From Dehalococcoidia bacterium (lineage in GTDB: Bacteria > Chloroflexota > Dehalococcoidia > UBA2979), in NCBI GenBank assembly GCA_964291495.2, contig OZ219872.1, forward strand, positions 160,001 to 224,000: DNA of 64,000 nucleotides, read 5' to 3'. Every line of letters starts with the position of its first letter. Within the stretch, counting starts at the first letter, position 1. A program made the position numbers and the translations under genes. The notes beneath the pieces are model-generated. The model was not told the DNA's origin and did not search any database. It saw nothing but the letters and a program-made list of their open reading frames with translations. Shown piece after piece: positions 2,233 to 7,650 of the stretch.

Positions 2233-2257
2233 AACGGGGCGGCTGAGCCGCCCCGTT
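2233..2257. terminator. Hairpin between convergent genes, likely a bidirectional terminator
   Basis: Perfect 11-bp stem AACGGGGCGGC-TGA-GCCGCCCCGTT between the rplT stop and the DUF169 stop at 2287. Confidence 0.7.
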
Positions 2258-2286: not shown

Positions 2287-3021
2287 TCAGTTCACCGGCG
2301 GGAAGCGCTTCATATCCTCGGCGGCGTAGCCCGCCACGGCAAGGTCGGCGCCCCCGGCCGCCTCGATCTTCGAGACGACGTCGGCCAGCTGGCTTGCCGG
2401 AATCGCGCAGGTCATTTCGGAGTTGGACATCCCGGTCCGTACACGACTGAGCTGTCAGCCAACGCTCGCGGCTGCGACTCCATGTTCCTTCGCCATCGCG
2501 ACGATGTGGCACTGCGGCTTGCCCTGCAGGCTCAGGTCCGGCAGCGCGTCGGACAGCACCATCAGCTGCCGGCCGGTGACGCGCAGCATCACCACGTCCG
2601 GGTCGATCGGCGTATCGGATAGCGGGCCGTAGGTGATCGCACCGGGCTTCTCGCTGATCGTCGGGATCAGCGGCACCACGTCCATCGTCACCCAGCCGCA
2701 CTCGAGGACCGCGGCCACGTCGGAGTTGCCCGCGACCTCATCGAGGGTCTTGAGGCCGTGCGTCAGGCTGCCGACGCTGCAGTTGCCGTGGTCCTCGGCC
2801 ACGGTCGAGAACGTGCGGTCCGTGGACTTCATCCAGAACACGCAGCCGGCCGAGACGCGGCCGGTGCGGCCGTCCTCGAGCGGCGGCGGCATCGGGTCGT
2901 CGAAAGCGTCCACGCCGTCGGGAGGCGCGTCCGAGAAGGTGATCGCGATCGGCGGTACGTCGGTCCCGACGCTCGACATCAGCCGCTGGCTGAGGCCCGC
3001 CCAGTCCTCTGTCGTGGCCAT
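2287..3021 (-). CDS. DUF169-like protein, candidate selenoprotein (UGA at 2457-2455 read as Sec, about U189 of 244 aa)
   Basis: PPIAITF..GRVSAGCVFW..DHGNCSVG..YGPL..PDVV..GKPQCHIV..ASVG-[TGA]-QLSRVRTGMSNSEMTCAIP..YAAEDMKRFPPVN*. SD GGAGGT precedes ATG 3021. An alternative start is ATG 3093. Confidence 0.8.
2408..2457 (-). promoter_or_regulatory. Candidate bacterial SECIS element
   Basis: After the UGA: apical stem GGAC/GUCC (+17..20/+27..30) with loop CGGGAU, extended by GU/AC, UCG/CGA, UCA/UGA and CAG/CUG pairs out to +47. Folded by eye. Confidence 0.6.
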
Positions 3022-3172
3022 CGCCACCTCCCCATTCGCGCCGCCTCCGAAGACGCGGCGCACAAGATTCCCGAACCAGTTTCCGGTACTCATGGCTGGA
3101 GTATGCTCCAACCTTCCCAAAATGACAAAGGCCGGAGTCCGAGGGCCGCGAGGCGCGCGCGGGAGCCGGTTC

Positions 3173-5608
3173 CTACGCGCGCTGCTCCGCGCCGTGCTCG
3201 CGCGCGAGGCGCTGGAGAATGCGCGCCTGCTCGCGGTTGGCGTCCTCGCCCGTGAGCGTGCGGTCGGGCGCCTGGTAGCGGATCGCGAAGGCGATCGACT
3301 TCTTGCCCGCGGGCAGCTGCTCGCCTCGGTAGACATCGAAGACGCGCGCCTCGGCGACCAGCCGCGACTGCTCGATCAGCGCCTGCAGCGCGCCCGCCGG
3401 GACGCCCTCGTCGACGACGAGCGCGACGTCCTGCTCCACCGCCGGGAAGCGCGGCACCGGCTCGGCGCTGCGCCGCCTGGGCGACGCCACGAGCAGCGCC
3501 GCGAGGTCCAGCTCGAAGAGCGCGACCGGCTGCTCGACGCCGAACGCCTCGAGGGTGTCCGGGTGCACCTCGCCGAGCGTGCCGACGGGCGTACCGCCGA
3601 TGCCGACGCGCGCACAGCGGCCAGCGAGCAGGCCGTGCTCCTCGGACGGCTCGTACTCGAAGGCGACGCCGAGGCGCTCGCCCAGCTCGTCGAGCACGCC
3701 CTTCGCGTCGAAGAAGCCGAGGGCGCGCTCGAGCGGGCTGCCCCAGCGGTCGCGATCTGCGCCGCAGAGCGCGCCAACGACGACCTCGCGCTCGTCGGGC
3801 AGCGGGCCGTCCGCGCCGCGGCGCGGCGCGTAGATGCGCCCGGCCTCGAAGATCGCGATCTCGTCCGCGCCCGCGCGCAGGTTGCGGTCGACCGTTTCAA
3901 TCAGCGAGTGGCGCAGCGAGGTGCGCAGCACCTCGTGTTCCGAGGAGAGCGTGTTGCGCAACTGCAGCGGCGCGTTCGCCTCCAGCTCGACGGGCGGCCG
4001 GACGCGGGCCAGCGCCTCGCCGGTGGTCAACGAGTAGTTGATCACCTCCTGCAACCCCGCGGCGGCGAGTGCGCGGTTCACGCGGTCGCGCAGCGCCGGC
4101 AGCGGGGCCGGCTCGTACGAGGGCACGCGCCCGCGCACCGTCGTTGCCGGCAGCCGGTCGTAGCCGGCGATGCGCACGACCTCCTCGGCGAGGTCGTCGG
4201 GGATCGTCACGTCGGTGCGCCACCACGGCGCGTCGACGAGGAAGCGCTCGGCCATGCCCTCCTCGCCGCCCTCGCGGGCGACCGCGAAACCGAGCGCGCC
4301 GAGGGCGGATGCGACCTCGGCGTCGGGGACGTGGAAGCCGAGCACGGTGTCGAGGCGCGAGCGCTCAAGGGCGACGCTCGCGGTGGGCTGCGGCCGCGGG
4401 TAGACATCGACCGCGCCGCGCCGCGCCGTGCCGCCGCAGACCTCGACGAGCAGCTGCGTCGCGCGCCGCGAGGCGTGGGCGGAAAGCTCCGGCGCGAGGC
4501 CGCGCTCGAAGCGCGAGGAGGCCTCGCTGCGCAGCCGCAGCCGCGTCGAGGTGCGGCGGATGCTCGCCGGGTCGAACTGCGCGGCTTCCAGCAGCACCCG
4601 CGTGGTGCCCTCGTGGACCTCGCTCTCGAGGCCGCCCATCACGCCGGCGAGCGCGATCGGCCCGCTGTCGTCGGTGATCAGCAGCGTGTCGTCGCTCAGC
4701 TCGCGGTCCTCGCCGTCGAGCGTGGTCAGGCGCTCGCCCTCGCGCGCGAGGCGCACGACGACCGTGCCCCGCAGCCGGTCGGCGTCGAAGGCGTGCAGCG
4801 GGTTGCCGAGCTCGAGCATCACGTAGTTCGTGACATCGACGACGTTGTTGATCGGGCGCTGCCCGGCGGCCTGCAGCCGCTCCTGCAGCCAGCGCGGCGA
4901 GGGCCCGACGGTGATGCCCTCGATCACCGTGGCGATGTAGCGCGCGCAGAGGTCAGGGTCGTCGATCGCGACGGCGGCGGCGTCCTCGACGGGCTCGTTG
5001 CCCTCGGAGTACTCGTCGTCCTGAAGGAGCAGCGCGGCGCCGAGGATGGCAGCGGCCTCGCGGGCGATGCCGGCCATGCTCATCATGTCGGCGCGGTTCG
5101 GCCAGGTATGCACGTCCAGCACCACGTCGCCGAGGTAGTCGGCGAGCGGCGCGCCCACGGGCGCGTCCCCGGGCAGCTCGAGGATGCCCTCGTGCTCCTC
5201 CGAGAGCCCCAGCTCGCGCTCGGACAGCACCATCCCCGAGGAATCGACGCCGCGGATGCGCGCCGCCTTGAGCGTCGCGGTCTCGCCGCTGCGCGGGTCG
5301 ACCAGCGTCGCGCCCTCGCGCGCGAAGGCGACGCGCTGGCCGGCGGCGACGTTCGGCGCGCCGCAGACCACGGTGTGCGGCTCGCCCGCGCCGTACTCGA
5401 CCGTCGCGAGCACGAGGCGGTCCGCGTTGGGGTGCGGGTCGACCGAAAGCACCTCGGCGACCGTCACCAGATCGCGGTCCCAGCCGCCTACGCGCTCGAT
5501 CCCCTCGACCTCCGCAGAGGCCATCGTCAGCCGCTCCGCGAACGCCTCGACGTCGAGGTCGTCCGGGAGGTCGACGTAGTCGCGCAGCCACTTGAGGGAG
5601 ACGAGCAT
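3173..5608 (-). CDS. pheT: Phenylalanine--tRNA ligase beta subunit
   Basis: MLVSLKWLRDYV..HPNADRL..VVCGAPNV..RPINNVVDVTNYV..SEASSRFERG..LRTSL..KKSIAF. Confidence 0.97.
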   Translation of the reverse strand: MLVSLKWLRDYVDLPDDLDVEAFAERLTMASAEVEGIERVGGWDRDLVTVAEVLSVDPHPNADRLVLATVEYGAGEPHTVVCGAPNVAAGQRVAFAREGATLVDPRSGETATLKAARIRGVDSSGMVLSERELGLSEEHEGILELPGDAPVGAPLADYLGDVVLDVHTWPNRADMMSMAGIAREAAAILGAALLLQDDEYSEGNEPVEDAAAVAIDDPDLCARYIATVIEGITVGPSPRWLQERLQAAGQRPINNVVDVTNYVMLELGNPLHAFDADRLRGTVVVRLAREGERLTTLDGEDRELSDDTLLITDDSGPIALAGVMGGLESEVHEGTTRVLLEAAQFDPASIRRTSTRLRLRSEASSRFERGLAPELSAHASRRATQLLVEVCGGTARRGAVDVYPRPQPTASVALERSRLDTVLGFHVPDAEVASALGALGFAVAREGGEEGMAERFLVDAPWWRTDVTIPDDLAEEVVRIAGYDRLPATTVRGRVPSYEPAPLPALRDRVNRALAAAGLQEVINYSLTTGEALARVRPPVELEANAPLQLRNTLSSEHEVLRTSLRHSLIETVDRNLRAGADEIAIFEAGRIYAPRRGADGPLPDEREVVVGALCGADRDRWGSPLERALGFFDAKGVLDELGERLGVAFEYEPSEEHGLLAGRCARVGIGGTPVGTLGEVHPDTLEAFGVEQPVALFELDLAALLVASPRRRSAEPVPRFPAVEQDVALVVDEGVPAGALQALIEQSRLVAEARVFDVYRGEQLPAGKKSIAFAIRYQAPDRTLTGEDANREQARILQRLAREHGAEQRA

Positions 5609-5621
5609 GCGGCGGGCCTCG

Positions 5622-6050
5622 CTAGAACTGGTCGAGCAGGATGGCGTTGCCATCCGGGTCTTCGATCACGATGTGCGCAGGGCCCTCGTCCTCGGTGGCC
5701 GGGAGCGCTACCGAGGGGTCCTGGCCGTCCGGCATCTCGTGCAGCAGCTCGGTCTCGAGGCCGCGCTCGGCGAGGCGGCTCTGGACGGCGCGCACGTCGG
5801 GCGGATTGAAGGTCAGGATGTTGCCCTCGAACATCCCCTCGAAGAGGCCGATCATCGCGCCGCCCTGGCGCATCATCAGCCAGCCCTCGCCGCCGCCGAG
5901 CGGCTCGAAGCCGAGCTGCTCATAGAACGCCTGCGAGACCGCGAGGTCGCTCACCGACAGGCTCACCGAGAAGTAGCCGAGGTTCGGGTCGCCCGCCGGT
6001 GGCGGCTCGGGCGCCTCGATGTCGCCGGCTGTCGGGTCGGCTTCGGACAT
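5622..6050 (-). CDS. VOC/glyoxalase family protein
   Basis: LGYFSVSLSVSDLAVSQAFYEQLGF..IGLFEGMFEGNILTFNP..IEDPDGNAILLDQ. Confidence 0.85.
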   Translation of the reverse strand: MSEADPTAGDIEAPEPPPAGDPNLGYFSVSLSVSDLAVSQAFYEQLGFEPLGGGEGWLMMRQGGAMIGLFEGMFEGNILTFNPPDVRAVQSRLAERGLETELLHEMPDGQDPSVALPATEDEGPAHIVIEDPDGNAILLDQF

Positions 6051-6052
6051 CG

Positions 6053-7126
6053 TCAGACCCCCTGGAACTGGCGCAGGAAGCGCAGGTCGTTGGCGTAGAA
6101 GTTGCGGATGTCCTCGATGCCGTGGCGCAGCATCGCGATCCGCTCGACGCCCATGCCGGCGGCGAAGCCGGTGTAGCGCTCCGGGTCGTAGCCGGAGGCA
6201 GCGAGCACCTCGGGGTGCACCATCCCCGCACCGAGGATCTCGAGCCAGCCGCTGCCGCGGCAGACCGCGCAGCCCGGCTCGTCGCCGGGGCAGGAGAAGC
6301 AGTCGACGGCGACCTCGACGCCGGGCTCGACGAAGGGGAAGTAGGAGTGGCGCAGCAGCACGCGGCGCTCGACGCCGAAGAGCTGGCGCGCGAACTCCAG
6401 CAGCGTGCCCTTGAGATCGGCGAGCGAGACGCCCTCGTCGACGGCGAGCAGCTCGACCTGCGTCATCATCCACTCGTGCGTCGCGTCGGTCGCCTCGTAG
6501 CGGTAGCAGCGGCCGGGCACGGCGATGCGCACGGGCGGTTCGTGGGCGTCGAGGTAGCGAATCTGCATCGGCGAGGTATGCGTGCGCAGCAGCAGCGGCT
6601 GCTCGCCGTCGACGTCCTCGTCGAGCCAGAAGGTGTCCCACATATCGCGCGCGGGGTGGTCCTCGGGGATGCGCAGGCGGGTGAAGTTGTAGTCGTCGAG
6701 CTCGACCTCGGGGCCCTCGACGGTGGCGAAGCCCATGCGCGTGAAGGCGTCGAGGATCTCCTGCAGGGTCTGGGTCACGGGGTGCAGGCCGCCGCGGCGG
6801 CGGCGCCGGCCGGGCAGCGTCACATCGACGGCGCCCCCGGCGAGCTGCGAGGCGAGGGCGGCGGCGCGCAGTTCCTCGTGGCGCGCCTCGAGCGCCGCCT
6901 CGAGGTCGCGCTTGAGCGCGTTGGCGGCCTGCCCGGTGGCGCGCCGCTCCTCGGCCGGCAGCGCGGAGAGCCCGCGCAGCACGCCGGTGAGCGCCCCCGA
7001 GCGCCCGAGCACGGAGCGCCGCCACTCCTCGACGGCCTCCTCGTCGCCCGCTGCGGCGAGCGCCTCGCGCCACTCGCGCGCGAGGCTATCGAGGTCGGTG
7101 GGGCTATCGGAGGCGTCGGCGGTCAT
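6053..7126 (-). CDS. pheS: Phenylalanine--tRNA ligase alpha subunit
   Basis: HPARDMWDTF, LLRTHTSPMQ, YFPFVEP, WLEILGAGMVHP, GMGVERIAML. Confidence 0.98.
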   Translation of the reverse strand: MTADASDSPTDLDSLAREWREALAAAGDEEAVEEWRRSVLGRSGALTGVLRGLSALPAEERRATGQAANALKRDLEAALEARHEELRAAALASQLAGGAVDVTLPGRRRRRGGLHPVTQTLQEILDAFTRMGFATVEGPEVELDDYNFTRLRIPEDHPARDMWDTFWLDEDVDGEQPLLLRTHTSPMQIRYLDAHEPPVRIAVPGRCYRYEATDATHEWMMTQVELLAVDEGVSLADLKGTLLEFARQLFGVERRVLLRHSYFPFVEPGVEVAVDCFSCPGDEPGCAVCRGSGWLEILGAGMVHPEVLAASGYDPERYTGFAAGMGVERIAMLRHGIEDIRNFYANDLRFLRQFQGV

Positions 7127-7185
7127 GTTTGGAGTGTCGCGCGCGCGGCGGGTGAGGGCAACGCGGCGCGGCGGCGGCGGCCTCG

Positions 7186-7650
7186 CTACAGCGTCCGCCG
7201 CCGTGGCGGAGGCTTGATCGCGTAGACCACGGCGGAGATCAGCGCCACGACCCCGCCCAGCCCCCACGCCGGAAGCCAGCCGAGGAAGGACAGGCCCCAG
7301 GCGCCCTCGGTACCGCCGGAGCCGAGCACCACCTCCACGACCAGCGCGGCCACCAGCATCGCGACCACGACCGGCACCGGCCCGAGGAAGGCGTAGATGA
7401 ACGCCGTCGCCACCACCGCGGCGGCCACGGCCCCGACGCGCGACGTGATCGCCTGCGAGGCAACCTTCCCCACGTTGACCCCGATCGCCGCGCCCCCGAG
7501 GACGCCGGCGACCACGGCGGCAACGAGCACGATCGCGGAACCCAAGGCTCCTGTCCTCCCCTGTCGCGCACCGGCGTCGGCGGTCGCCGGCGACGATACG
7601 CCCTGTGTCGTGGGTGGTGTCGGAAGCGGAGGCCGACAGGACGCCGTCAT
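7186..7650 (-). CDS. Small multi-pass membrane protein, start uncertain
   Basis: About 4 hydrophobic segments and a basic C-tail. Fills the gap upstream of pheS. Confidence 0.55.
   Translation of the reverse strand: MTASCRPPLPTPPTTQGVSSPATADAGARQGRTGALGSAIVLVAAVVAGVLGGAAIGVNVGKVASQAITSRVGAVAAAVVATAFIYAFLGPVPVVVAMLVAALVVEVVLGSGGTEGAWGLSFLGWLPAWGLGGVVALISAVVYAIKPPPRRRTL

Follow-up and report, generated by a model that had tools for sequence, protein, structure and literature searches.

The DUF169-family gene at positions 2287 to 3021 of the minus strand probably encodes a genuine selenoprotein, in which the UGA at codon 189 is decoded as selenocysteine (Sec). We assign this reading a probability of roughly 0.88, on the basis of the Sec/Cys pair formed with relatives, the conserved tail beyond the UGA, the constraint on the RNA and the Sec machinery of the genome. 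The gene sits between pheT and rplT in the window, a stretch of 64,000 nucleotides from a Dehalococcoidia bacterium (contig OZ219872.1). Read from ATG 3021, or alternatively from ATG 3093, the frame meets TGA 2457-2455 after the residues AAASVG and, in agreement with the coordinates and sequence of the original prediction, stays open for 55 further sense codons (QLSRVRTGMSNSEMTCAIP...AAEDMKRFPPVN) until TGA 2289-2287. Public gene calls end at ASVG (P0003, P0033), which on the selenoprotein reading would be an annotation error that cuts off the DUF169 protein. The pairing of Sec with Cys, the conservation of the tail and the invariance of the nucleotides after the UGA all exceed chance, whereas the predicted fold after the UGA does no better than chance. 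The gene and its flanking elements are as follows:

2287 to 3021, minus strand: coding sequence of the putative selenoprotein, a DUF169-family member of 244 residues in which residue 189 is U; the stop codon TGA 2289-2287 is included.
2455 to 2457, minus strand: in-frame UGA, read as selenocysteine 189 from the TGA, TGC and TGT counts in relatives and the invariant column.
2287 to 2289, minus strand: predicted true stop codon of the gene, at the same codon position in all 11 Sec-type genes.
3027 to 3033, minus strand: Shine-Dalgarno-like GGGGAGG, 5 nt before ATG 3021, read from the sequence.
3022 to 3093, minus strand: stretch of 24 codons starting at ATG 3093, possibly an N-terminal extension; its frame is open in every one of the 11 Sec-type genes.
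3100 to 3128, minus strand: sigma-70-like promoter match (TTGTCA, 17-nt spacer, CATACT) in the pheT-DUF169 spacer, a consensus match only.
2236 to 2254, minus strand: GC-rich hairpin GGGGCGGC/TCA/GCCGCCCC downstream of the stop, flanked by rplT and DUF169, two convergent genes.

The predicted protein matches the DUF169 profile (PF02596, COG2043) with an E-value of 1.1e-17 and 65.1 bits, well above the gathering threshold of 27 bits, and the match runs across the TGA and covers profile positions 2-208 of 209, that is, the whole domain. It is a divergent member of the family, canonical representatives of which score up to 198 bits. ATG 3021 lies approximately where alignments with the Cys-type relatives begin; the segment upstream of it is absent from those alignments and evolves fast (pS 0.33, pN/pS 0.41), and is more likely a 5' leader than an N-terminal extension. 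The promoter scan found a single sigma-70-like match against 0.0 expected. A terminator hairpin had been predicted at the 3' end: the GC-rich hairpin is indeed present about 32 nt after the stop, but it fails the T-run rule, under which the terminator scan returned no terminators, this hairpin included.

The central evidence comes from the codon that relatives carry at position 189. Among 20 loci of relatives it is TGA in 11, TGC in eight and TGT in one; among the best 80 loci of genome contigs the corresponding counts are 11, 59 and 10, so that the UGA aligns with a Cys codon in 69 of the 80 and never with Trp. Ten of the 11 TGA loci in this larger set come from the same genomes as those in the smaller one, the extra locus belonging to a partial metagenome-assembled genome (MAG; L063). 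Beyond this MAG, the TGA is kept in all 11 of the closest species of the genus (10 besides the source) and in a divergent metagenome contig (L122), the product of which is 81% identical at the amino acid level; TGA-bearing orthologues are thus found in other Sec-using organisms, all of a single lineage. An alignment of 28 sequences, with identity down to 27%, shows only four invariant columns, namely C60, W63, C189 and R193, if the Sec of the window is counted with the Cys found at position 189 in all 27 relatives. The codons of the conserved residues around this position are:

2842 to 2844, minus strand: invariant Cys60 (28-sequence alignment; C in 9/9 canonical DUF169 rows).
2779 to 2781, minus strand: nearly invariant Cys81 of an H78-x-x-C81 motif (28-sequence alignment).
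2509 to 2511, minus strand: nearly invariant Cys171 (28-sequence alignment and canonical rows).
2443 to 2445, minus strand: invariant Arg193 of the G-U/C-x-x-x-R motif (28-sequence alignment and canonical rows).

The S-x-G-C-x-x-x-R motif that had been given for the family was recovered, with G188 nearly invariant beside C189 and R193. Of the cysteines that had been proposed to share a site with U189, that of the TC dipeptide (C205) is not conserved family-wide. In canonical DUF169 proteins (12 rows fetched, of which L126, L128 and L134 were dropped as wrong-frame ORFs and nine kept) C60, C171 and R193 are present in 9/9, and the column of the Sec holds C in 6/9, G in one and D in two.

The region beyond the UGA bears the marks of a protein-coding sequence. 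Across the 11 Sec-type genes it has a pN/pS of 0.22, compared with 0.14 before the UGA, contains no indels and ends at a fixed stop position, even though the letters of the stop codon itself vary. In the comparison with L122, in which the stop lies one codon earlier, the part upstream of the UGA has a pS of 0.81, and codons +17 to +54 have a pN/pS of 0.27. Codons +1 to +7, which precede the first downstream ATG, encode the QLSRVRT of the family, the invariant R193 included, and show five synonymous and no non-synonymous changes when compared with the closest gene of the Cys type. The expected conservation past the UGA is thus borne out as purifying selection on the tail in the 11 Sec-type species and L122, a pattern of substitution which argues that the tail is translated.

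A second constraint acts on the nucleotides themselves, and is concentrated immediately after the UGA, where the following segments are distinguished:

2408 to 2463, minus strand: 56-nt run with zero variable sites in 11 Sec-type species, the longest in the 807-nt alignment.
2423 to 2445, minus strand: block identical even in L122, nt 13-35 from the U of the UGA.
2425 to 2438, minus strand: candidate SelB-binding apical hairpin GGAC/CGGGAU/GUCC, wholly within the conserved block.
2405 to 2452, minus strand: alternative extended stem-loop, structure 'A' (MFE and RNAalifold), an uncertain predicted fold.

The invariant run contains the UGA and the following 47 nt, and 15 codons after the UGA are invariant at the nucleotide level across the 11 species. 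In shuffle tests a longest run of this length had P 0.013, and 15 invariant codons following a fixed codon had P of about 5e-4. Although 61% of third codon positions differ in L122, nt 13-35 are identical, and pS against L122 drops to 0.36 in codons +1 to +16. The fall in GC3 bias that had been noticed after the UGA proved to be real, at 0.75 in codons +1 to +16 against 0.93 in the gene core.

These observations bear on the possibility that the gene is split or truncated, such that the TGA is a real stop, the protein has 188 residues and the tail is a relic or else encodes a small protein of its own from a downstream ATG, the invariant nucleotides then serving re-initiation. There is in fact an ATG eight codons past the TGA, gene callers do stop at the TGA, and the fold of the candidate SECIS is no better than background. 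Against this, the stop would have landed exactly on one of the four invariant residues, and the seven codons ahead of the ATG keep their family sequence through synonymous changes alone. Furthermore, the tail keeps its low pN/pS, its frame and its stop position (but for the one codon in L122) despite a pS of about 0.8, and truncation would remove a C-terminal helix of 30 residues, which the structural model predicts with high confidence. We therefore consider a split gene very unlikely.

Decoding of the UGA as Sec would depend on Sec machinery, and profile searches recovered it in the genome as the original prediction required: selA (523.6 bits), selB (301.7 bits), selD (368 bits, itself with an in-frame TGA and thus Sec-containing) and a tRNA-Sec (77 bits, anticodon TCA). 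Across the genus selA is found in 19/19 genomes and tRNA-Sec in 18/19. The genome has more than 15 other Sec genes, which include five of the UGSC type, FdhA, a rhodanese and a DsbA-like protein, among others. This weighs on a further alternative, namely that the UGA is read through without Sec, by a near-cognate tRNA inserting Trp, Cys or Arg or under a local recoding signal, to give a full-length protein that lacks selenium. The UGA is followed by C, a leaky context in E. coli, and the hairpin downstream is weak, both of which suit such read-through. However, the same UGA-C context is present at the true stop, TGA terminates the DUF169 gene itself and many other ORFs of the window, the relatives carry Cys, which is the hallmark of a Sec pair, and not Trp, and the Sec system is complete and accompanied by the other Sec genes. 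We judge selenium-free read-through to be very unlikely.

The remaining alternative, that the TGA is an error of sequencing or assembly or a nonsense mutation private to this genome in a gene undergoing decay, has no observation in its favour and a negligible chance of being correct, as the same TGA stands in 11 species-level assemblies, the partial MAG, the metagenome contig and contigs of independent runs, and selection on the tail speaks against decay. In the independent-run comparison, which was made on contigs, a contig from a separate DNA run (X2) keeps the TGA and shows no difference between 2354 and 2481, and an RNA-library contig (X18, 2414-2606) bridges the TGA unchanged, this being a single contig that could derive from DNA. 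Run X17 has no coverage around the UGA and carries no weight either way. In every respect in which the assignment of U189 to a conserved Cys might have failed, whether in the letters at 2455, the residue in homologues, the sharing of the TGA with other species and the divergent contig, or the presence of the Sec genes, the outcome favoured the selenoprotein reading.

The weak point of the case is the SECIS element, the fold of which is statistically indistinguishable from background. Under the bSECISearch consensus, a bacterial SECIS is a stem-loop starting a few nt after the UGA, with its apical loop about 20 nt downstream and a G among the first two loop bases. The GGAC/CGGGAU/GUCC element was found where predicted, at 2438-2425, with 22 nt from the A of the UGA to the first G of the loop. 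Its loop lies 24-29 nt from the U, within the 18-30 range read off the dot-bracket lines of this genome's other selenoprotein genes, and the hairpin forms part of the MFE fold of L122. In where its stem-loop starts, its loop distance of about 20 nt and the early G it resembles the SECIS of the E. coli fdhF type; it differs in that its apical stem is short, at 4 bp, and finds no support in energy or covariation. The long stem-loop that had been proposed does appear, in that the MFE structure of 57-66 nt is one long imperfect stem-loop, but its energy is no better than that of shuffled sequences: RNAfold gave the post-UGA segment a z-score of -0.34, and 69 of 200 shuffles folded at least as well.

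Comparisons with coding sequence at large point the same way. The apical hairpin, at -4.8 kcal/mol, is matched or beaten after 59% of 1500 random Cys codons from the coding regions of the genome, whereas the median for ten accepted Sec genes from the same genome is near -11.4 in this test; it is thus weaker than most in its own genome. Under bSECIS-like criteria 84% of background sites hold a 'qualifying' hairpin. Segments of the Sec type fold less stably (-15.8 kcal/mol) than 72 segments of the Cys type (mean -19.8). The covariation that would have strengthened the proposed hairpin did not materialize, as none of the 15 predicted pairs of structure 'A' has a compensatory change and two of the 15 are broken in L122. 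An ensemble probability of 0.44 was obtained for the hairpin in L122, compared with 0.01 in the window, and the folds predicted for the two Sec-type lineages disagree. An Rfam search (E <= 10) retrieved sRNA rows attributable to chance and none from a SECIS family. Substitutions on the Sec branch were set aside as 'pair-forming' evidence, since the structure was derived from the same sequence and the argument is circular. The most probable candidate for the SECIS element is the hairpin GGAC/CGGGAU/GUCC. Atypical SECISs do exist, because 87.4% of entries are given as having a canonical SECIS in BSepDB.

If the selenoprotein reading is correct, a ribosome arriving at the UGA would be supplied with SelB·GTP·Sec-tRNA(Sec), brought in by an element of the mRNA just past this codon, for which the conserved hairpin at a distance of 17-30 nt is the most probable candidate. 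After insertion of Sec, translation would continue for 55 codons to the stop at 2289-2287, and Sec would occupy the position in the G-C-x-x-x-R motif where the family has its invariant Cys.

In phylogenetic terms the Sec-type genes form one clade (support 100/99), and its sister group is made up of Cys-type genes from the same genus. All TGA-bearers are kin and represent one evolutionary event, and the tree thus points to a single origin of the Cys-to-Sec switch within one Dehalococcoidia genus, the members of which already used Sec. In 401 Chloroflexota genomes, 115 of which had a match (the count including one ordinary Cys-type row from the unpublished G135), only G000 has a TGA, and there is no other TGA-bearing DUF169. 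In 401 Actinomycetota genomes, with 62 matches (including the unpublished G512, G576, G614 and G733 as ordinary rows), none has a TGA, one has a TAG and one a TAA. Nothing else in the analysis draws on these unpublished genomes. A degenerate-pattern scan of metagenome contigs yielded L122 as its single match. The Cys-type orthologues of Dehalococcoidia and Acidimicrobiia (L034, L057; P0004) are 58-79% identical to the Sec-type protein and equal to it in length, and share its four Cys positions and the Arg. They differ in the codon at position 189, which is TGC or TGT and not TGA, in the GC3-rich codons that follow, and, in Acidimicrobiia, in their gene neighborhood, which contains adjoining NifS-like and NfuA-like genes instead of pheT and rplT.

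This neighborhood hints at sulfur or Fe-S chemistry. Selenocysteines nearly always serve as catalytic redox residues or metal ligands, and therefore the switch identifies position 189, within the G-C-x-x-x-R motif, as where the active site of DUF169 likely lies. We infer that U189 would be the catalytic nucleophile of a center that also comprises C60, C81 and C171, along with H78 and R193, and that the family may act in sulfur or selenium transfer or in Fe-S or metal(loid) chemistry. The AlphaFold model is confident (pLDDT 96). Foldseek found no match in the PDB at E <= 0.001, the PDB searched by sequence gave a chance row only (E 0.58), and NCBIfam returned no families. A wide VIA-align comparison reached a best Z of 4.7, with mostly thiolase-fold halves at Z 3-4; these values are below a meaningful level and do not imply a new fold.

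As regards its place among known selenoproteins, a 2026 inventory counts 119 families and subfamilies and BSepDB counts 111. The main text of the former does not list DUF169 (PF02596); PF02596 has no match in PMC13188914 (Table 1, main text), and none of the eight 'DUF' mentions there is DUF169. The novelty that had been suspected is consistent with the literature, in which no report of DUF169 (PF02596, COG2043, IPR003748) as a selenoprotein was found, though supplements (BSepDB Table S2, deep-Sep, GOS, Sargasso) might list the family. Like the DUF523, DUF166, DUF1858 and DUF3179 selenoprotein families of PMC13188914 Table 1, which were predicted computationally and are defined by Sec/Cys pairs, the gene combines a UGA at a conserved Cys, conservation downstream, TGA orthologues and a predicted 3' stem-loop; unlike the families of that table, its domain is PF02596/DUF169. 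It has neither a UxxC nor a CxxU motif, the local motif being S-x-G-U-x-x-x-R.

DUF169 would accordingly add one family to the catalogue of prokaryotic selenoproteins. It is also a useful case for SECIS models, in which constraint is clear in the nucleotides and not in the predicted energy. More tentatively, and with the odds against the proposal as a whole, DUF169 may be an unrecognised selenoprotein family in which Sec/Cys189 is the nucleophile of a four-Cys center (C60, C81, C171 and U/C189) that either accepts sulfur or selenium supplied by a cysteine desulfurase of the NifS type or serves as the scaffold for an Fe-S or metal(loid) center. If this is true, the natural Cys-to-Sec switch would be the first functional handle on DUF169, a widespread archaeal and bacterial family that lacks a solved structure.

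Public gene calls end the DUF169 protein early, at ..ASVG, ahead of an in-frame TGA at 2457-2455 (residue 189). The read-through protein scores 65.1 bits with the Pfam family DUF169 (PF02596), where the cut-off is 27; the match extends from position 2 to 208 of the 209 in the profile and so spans the TGA. NCBIfam contains no model for this protein. The gene is convergent with the plus-strand genes infC-rpmI-rplT and lies downstream of pheS and pheT, with the following features:

7267..6053, minus strand, pheS
5653..3173, minus strand, pheT
3128-3100, minus strand, sigma-70-like promoter match in the spacer between pheT and DUF169
5 nt upstream of the ATG at 3021, minus strand, Shine-Dalgarno sequence GGGGAGG
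3021..2287, minus strand, DUF169 gene, 244 codons

The sigma-70-like match would place the transcript start near an upstream ATG at 3093, suggesting that the gene may have its own promoter, which would give either a leader of 72 nt or a longer, leaderless form. The ATG at 3093 is also in open frame; the 24 added codons evolve fast (pS 0.33, pN/pS 0.41), and they fall outside the alignments with Cys-type relatives (those with TGC or TGT at codon 189).

The TGA called in the original prediction is upheld by contigs from other sequencing runs. One, from a DNA run distinct from the likely source, spans 2200-2568 with 14 differences, none of which falls in 2354-2481, and a 194-nt RNA-library contig spanning 2414-2606 keeps the TGA. 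These contigs exclude an assembly error at this codon, and the one from the RNA library hints weakly at transcription of the gene. In each of the four runs, just the 40 nt at 2486-2525 (coding for ..PQCHIVAMAKE..) are matched by numerous short contigs that differ in depth and have unlike sequence on both flanks, with a summed depth in run X1 of 153-177 versus 12.8 elsewhere; paralogues or other organisms may share this piece.

A six-frame search recovered the DUF169 gene in 28 of 61 related genomes, including all 19 of the genus. Among 20 loci of relatives codon 189 is TGA in 11 (the present genome and 10 other species, with at least 90% amino acid identity), TGC in 8 and TGT in 1. The best 80 loci from a scan of species-representative genomes, in which the close ones are Dehalococcoidia MAGs and the remainder mostly Acidimicrobiia by record titles, show 11 TGA, 59 TGC and 10 TGT; ten of these TGA loci are in genomes already counted, and the other is an additional partial MAG (L063). 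One further TGA-bearer, the metagenome contig L122, emerged from a degenerate-pattern scan, and is 81% identical to the window gene in amino acids and 71.5% in nucleotides; the two differ at 61% of third positions. Across 28 aligned representatives, with identity down to 27%, the only invariant columns are C60, W63, C189 and R193, while H78, C81, C171 and G188 are nearly invariant. The UGA falls at a conserved cysteine, as had been proposed, and recurs in orthologues. In nine canonical DUF169 members (three wrong-frame rows left out), C60, C171 and R193 are each present in 9/9, and the Sec column has C in six, G in one and D in two.

The TGA might instead mark a split or decaying gene, against which the region beyond it provides several lines of evidence. 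All 11 Sec-type genes (those with TGA at codon 189) keep the frame without indels and have a fixed stop position, even as the letters of the stop codon vary, and pN/pS is 0.14 upstream and 0.22 downstream of the UGA. In the comparison with L122, where synonymous changes approach saturation (pS 0.81), pN/pS is still 0.27 in codons +17..+54, in line with the predicted conservation past the UGA. Codons +1..+7 (QLSRVRT, with the invariant R193) are kept and lie upstream of any downstream ATG; relative to the nearest Cys-type gene they show five synonymous changes and no non-synonymous ones.

The segment after the UGA of the Sec-type genes is also constrained at the nucleotide level. The longest invariant run in their 807-nt alignment is 56 nt and contains the UGA together with the 47 nt that follow (codon-column shuffling, P 0.013; about 5e-4 for a fixed codon followed by 15 invariant ones). 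Against L122, pS falls to 0.36 in codons +1..+16, and there is no difference at all in nt 13-35 after the U. The drop in GC3 bias noticed originally holds (0.75 in codons +1..+16 versus 0.93 in the gene core), and Cys-type relatives use GC3-rich synonyms for the same codons.

For the proposed SECIS hairpin the observations point both ways. The MFE fold past the UGA is indeed one long stem-loop. The originally described hairpin GGAC/CGGGAU/GUCC (2438-2425, minus strand) is the sole helix wholly within the universally conserved block, and it is part of the MFE of L122. Its loop is 24-29 nt from the U, which by our reading of dot-bracket lines fits the 18-30 range of other selenoprotein genes of the genome, and is similar to CGUGAU, the loop of a UGSC gene of the same genome. 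However, the z-score of the MFE fold is only -0.34, the Sec-type fold is less stable than that of Cys-type segments, and RNAalifold found no compensatory pair, with 2 of 15 pairs broken in L122. The stem of the hairpin is only 4 bp (-4.8 kcal/mol), equalled or bettered at 59% of 1500 background Cys codons; the median hairpin of ten accepted Sec genes of the genome is near -11.4 kcal/mol. For this hairpin, the ensemble probability is 0.01 in the window and 0.44 in L122. The candidate SECIS is therefore atypically weak, which is unusual but not disqualifying, given that BSepDB reports a canonical SECIS in 87.4% of its entries.

The genome carries the expected Sec machinery, namely selA, selB, selD (with its own Sec codon) and a tRNA-Sec with anticodon TCA. 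Across the genus selA is present in 19/19 genomes and tRNA-Sec in 18/19, the sole miss being a Cys-type genome of 90% completeness; for the family, 49 of the 61 sampled genomes have selA. In a tree computed with the Sec/Cys column masked, the 11 Sec-type genes group in a single clade (100/99), whose sister group is the Cys-type genes of this genus. Adding L122 yields an unresolved trichotomy with the Sec-type genes (Sec monophyly 70/48). Sec machinery across the genus and a single Sec-type clade point to one Cys-to-Sec switch in a lineage already using Sec.

A scan for coding-like frames flanking TGA on both sides found many accepted Sec genes in the genome, and in BSepDB, Dehalococcoidia MAGs rank in the top ten bacteria for selenoprotein richness. 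Spread over several contigs are genes for five UGSC paralogues, FdhA, rhodanese-like, DsbA-like (UPWC), Trx-like (UPAC), WUGVC and SelD selenoproteins, a ferredoxin-thioredoxin reductase beta chain with CHULLFC, and a small GEPGC-U-SD..HHHHDH protein without a Pfam match; a CMD match with CKWU is weak and under cut-off (E 3.4e-4, 21 bits versus 23). Two thiolase-like genes outside the window, at G000:C5:178591-180006 (L135; ..CFVNG-U-GGGLSVM..) and G000:C5:687169-688416 (L136; ..CLVNG-U-GGYASVM..), both on the plus strand, have an in-frame TGA 17-18 codons ahead of the stop, each followed by a hairpin. Their Thiolase_C_1 matches (E 3e-40, 2e-45) cross the TGA to the profile end. These genes may represent a further unlisted Sec family, with 'Thiolase' having no occurrences in the main text of the 2026 selenoprotein review PMC13188914. 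In each of two relatives, a distance of about 1.1 kb separates a pair of tRNA-Sec genes (G004:C1:1964265-1965536, G017:C3:762282-763469).

An AlphaFold2 model built with the 28-row alignment (pLDDT 96, pTM 0.92) places C60, C81, C171 and U189 each one residue ahead of a helix (61-65, 82-87, 172-180 and 190-196), a predicted placement that would be typical of activated thiols and cluster ligands. Searches of the PDB by sequence, with Foldseek and with VIA-align, found no solved structural relative. In the Cys-type clusters (L057-L120, mostly Acidimicrobiia), a NifS/IscS-like cysteine desulfurase lies upstream of DUF169 in 51/80 loci, sharing its strand in the three checked, with a glyoxalase-fold gene in between in 24/80. 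An NfuA-like gene occurs in the flank of 55/80, mostly downstream and convergent (upstream and on the same strand in L096 and L117). As these loci are kin, the arrangement represents one lineage's synteny; Sec-type genes have no such neighbourhood. At one locus only, in a Miltoncostaeaceae MAG, a MerB-family (alkylmercury lyase-like) gene (L116:2197-2922) is directly upstream of the DUF169 orthologue. In published passages, DUF169 genes neighbour a TauE-like exporter in Desulfovibrio alaskensis G20 (PMC4001038) and lie close to HgcA-like genes in Nitrospina (10.1101/648329); for Slackia, a table of YedE-linked genes includes DUF169 (PMC5322559). Taken together, the Cys/U placement, the synteny and these published neighbours lead us to favour the hypothesis that DUF169 has a thiol/selenol centre for sulfur/selenium transfer, or for Fe-S or metal(loid) handling.

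The main text of the 2026 inventory (PMC13188914) contains no 'PF02596', and none of its eight occurrences of 'DUF' is DUF169. More generally, no publication tying DUF169 to selenocysteine was found in main texts, to which its apparent absence from print hence refers. The proposed mode of decoding is already known, and the DUF169 gene is a candidate for a genuine new selenoprotein family, so far confined to one Dehalococcoidia lineage.
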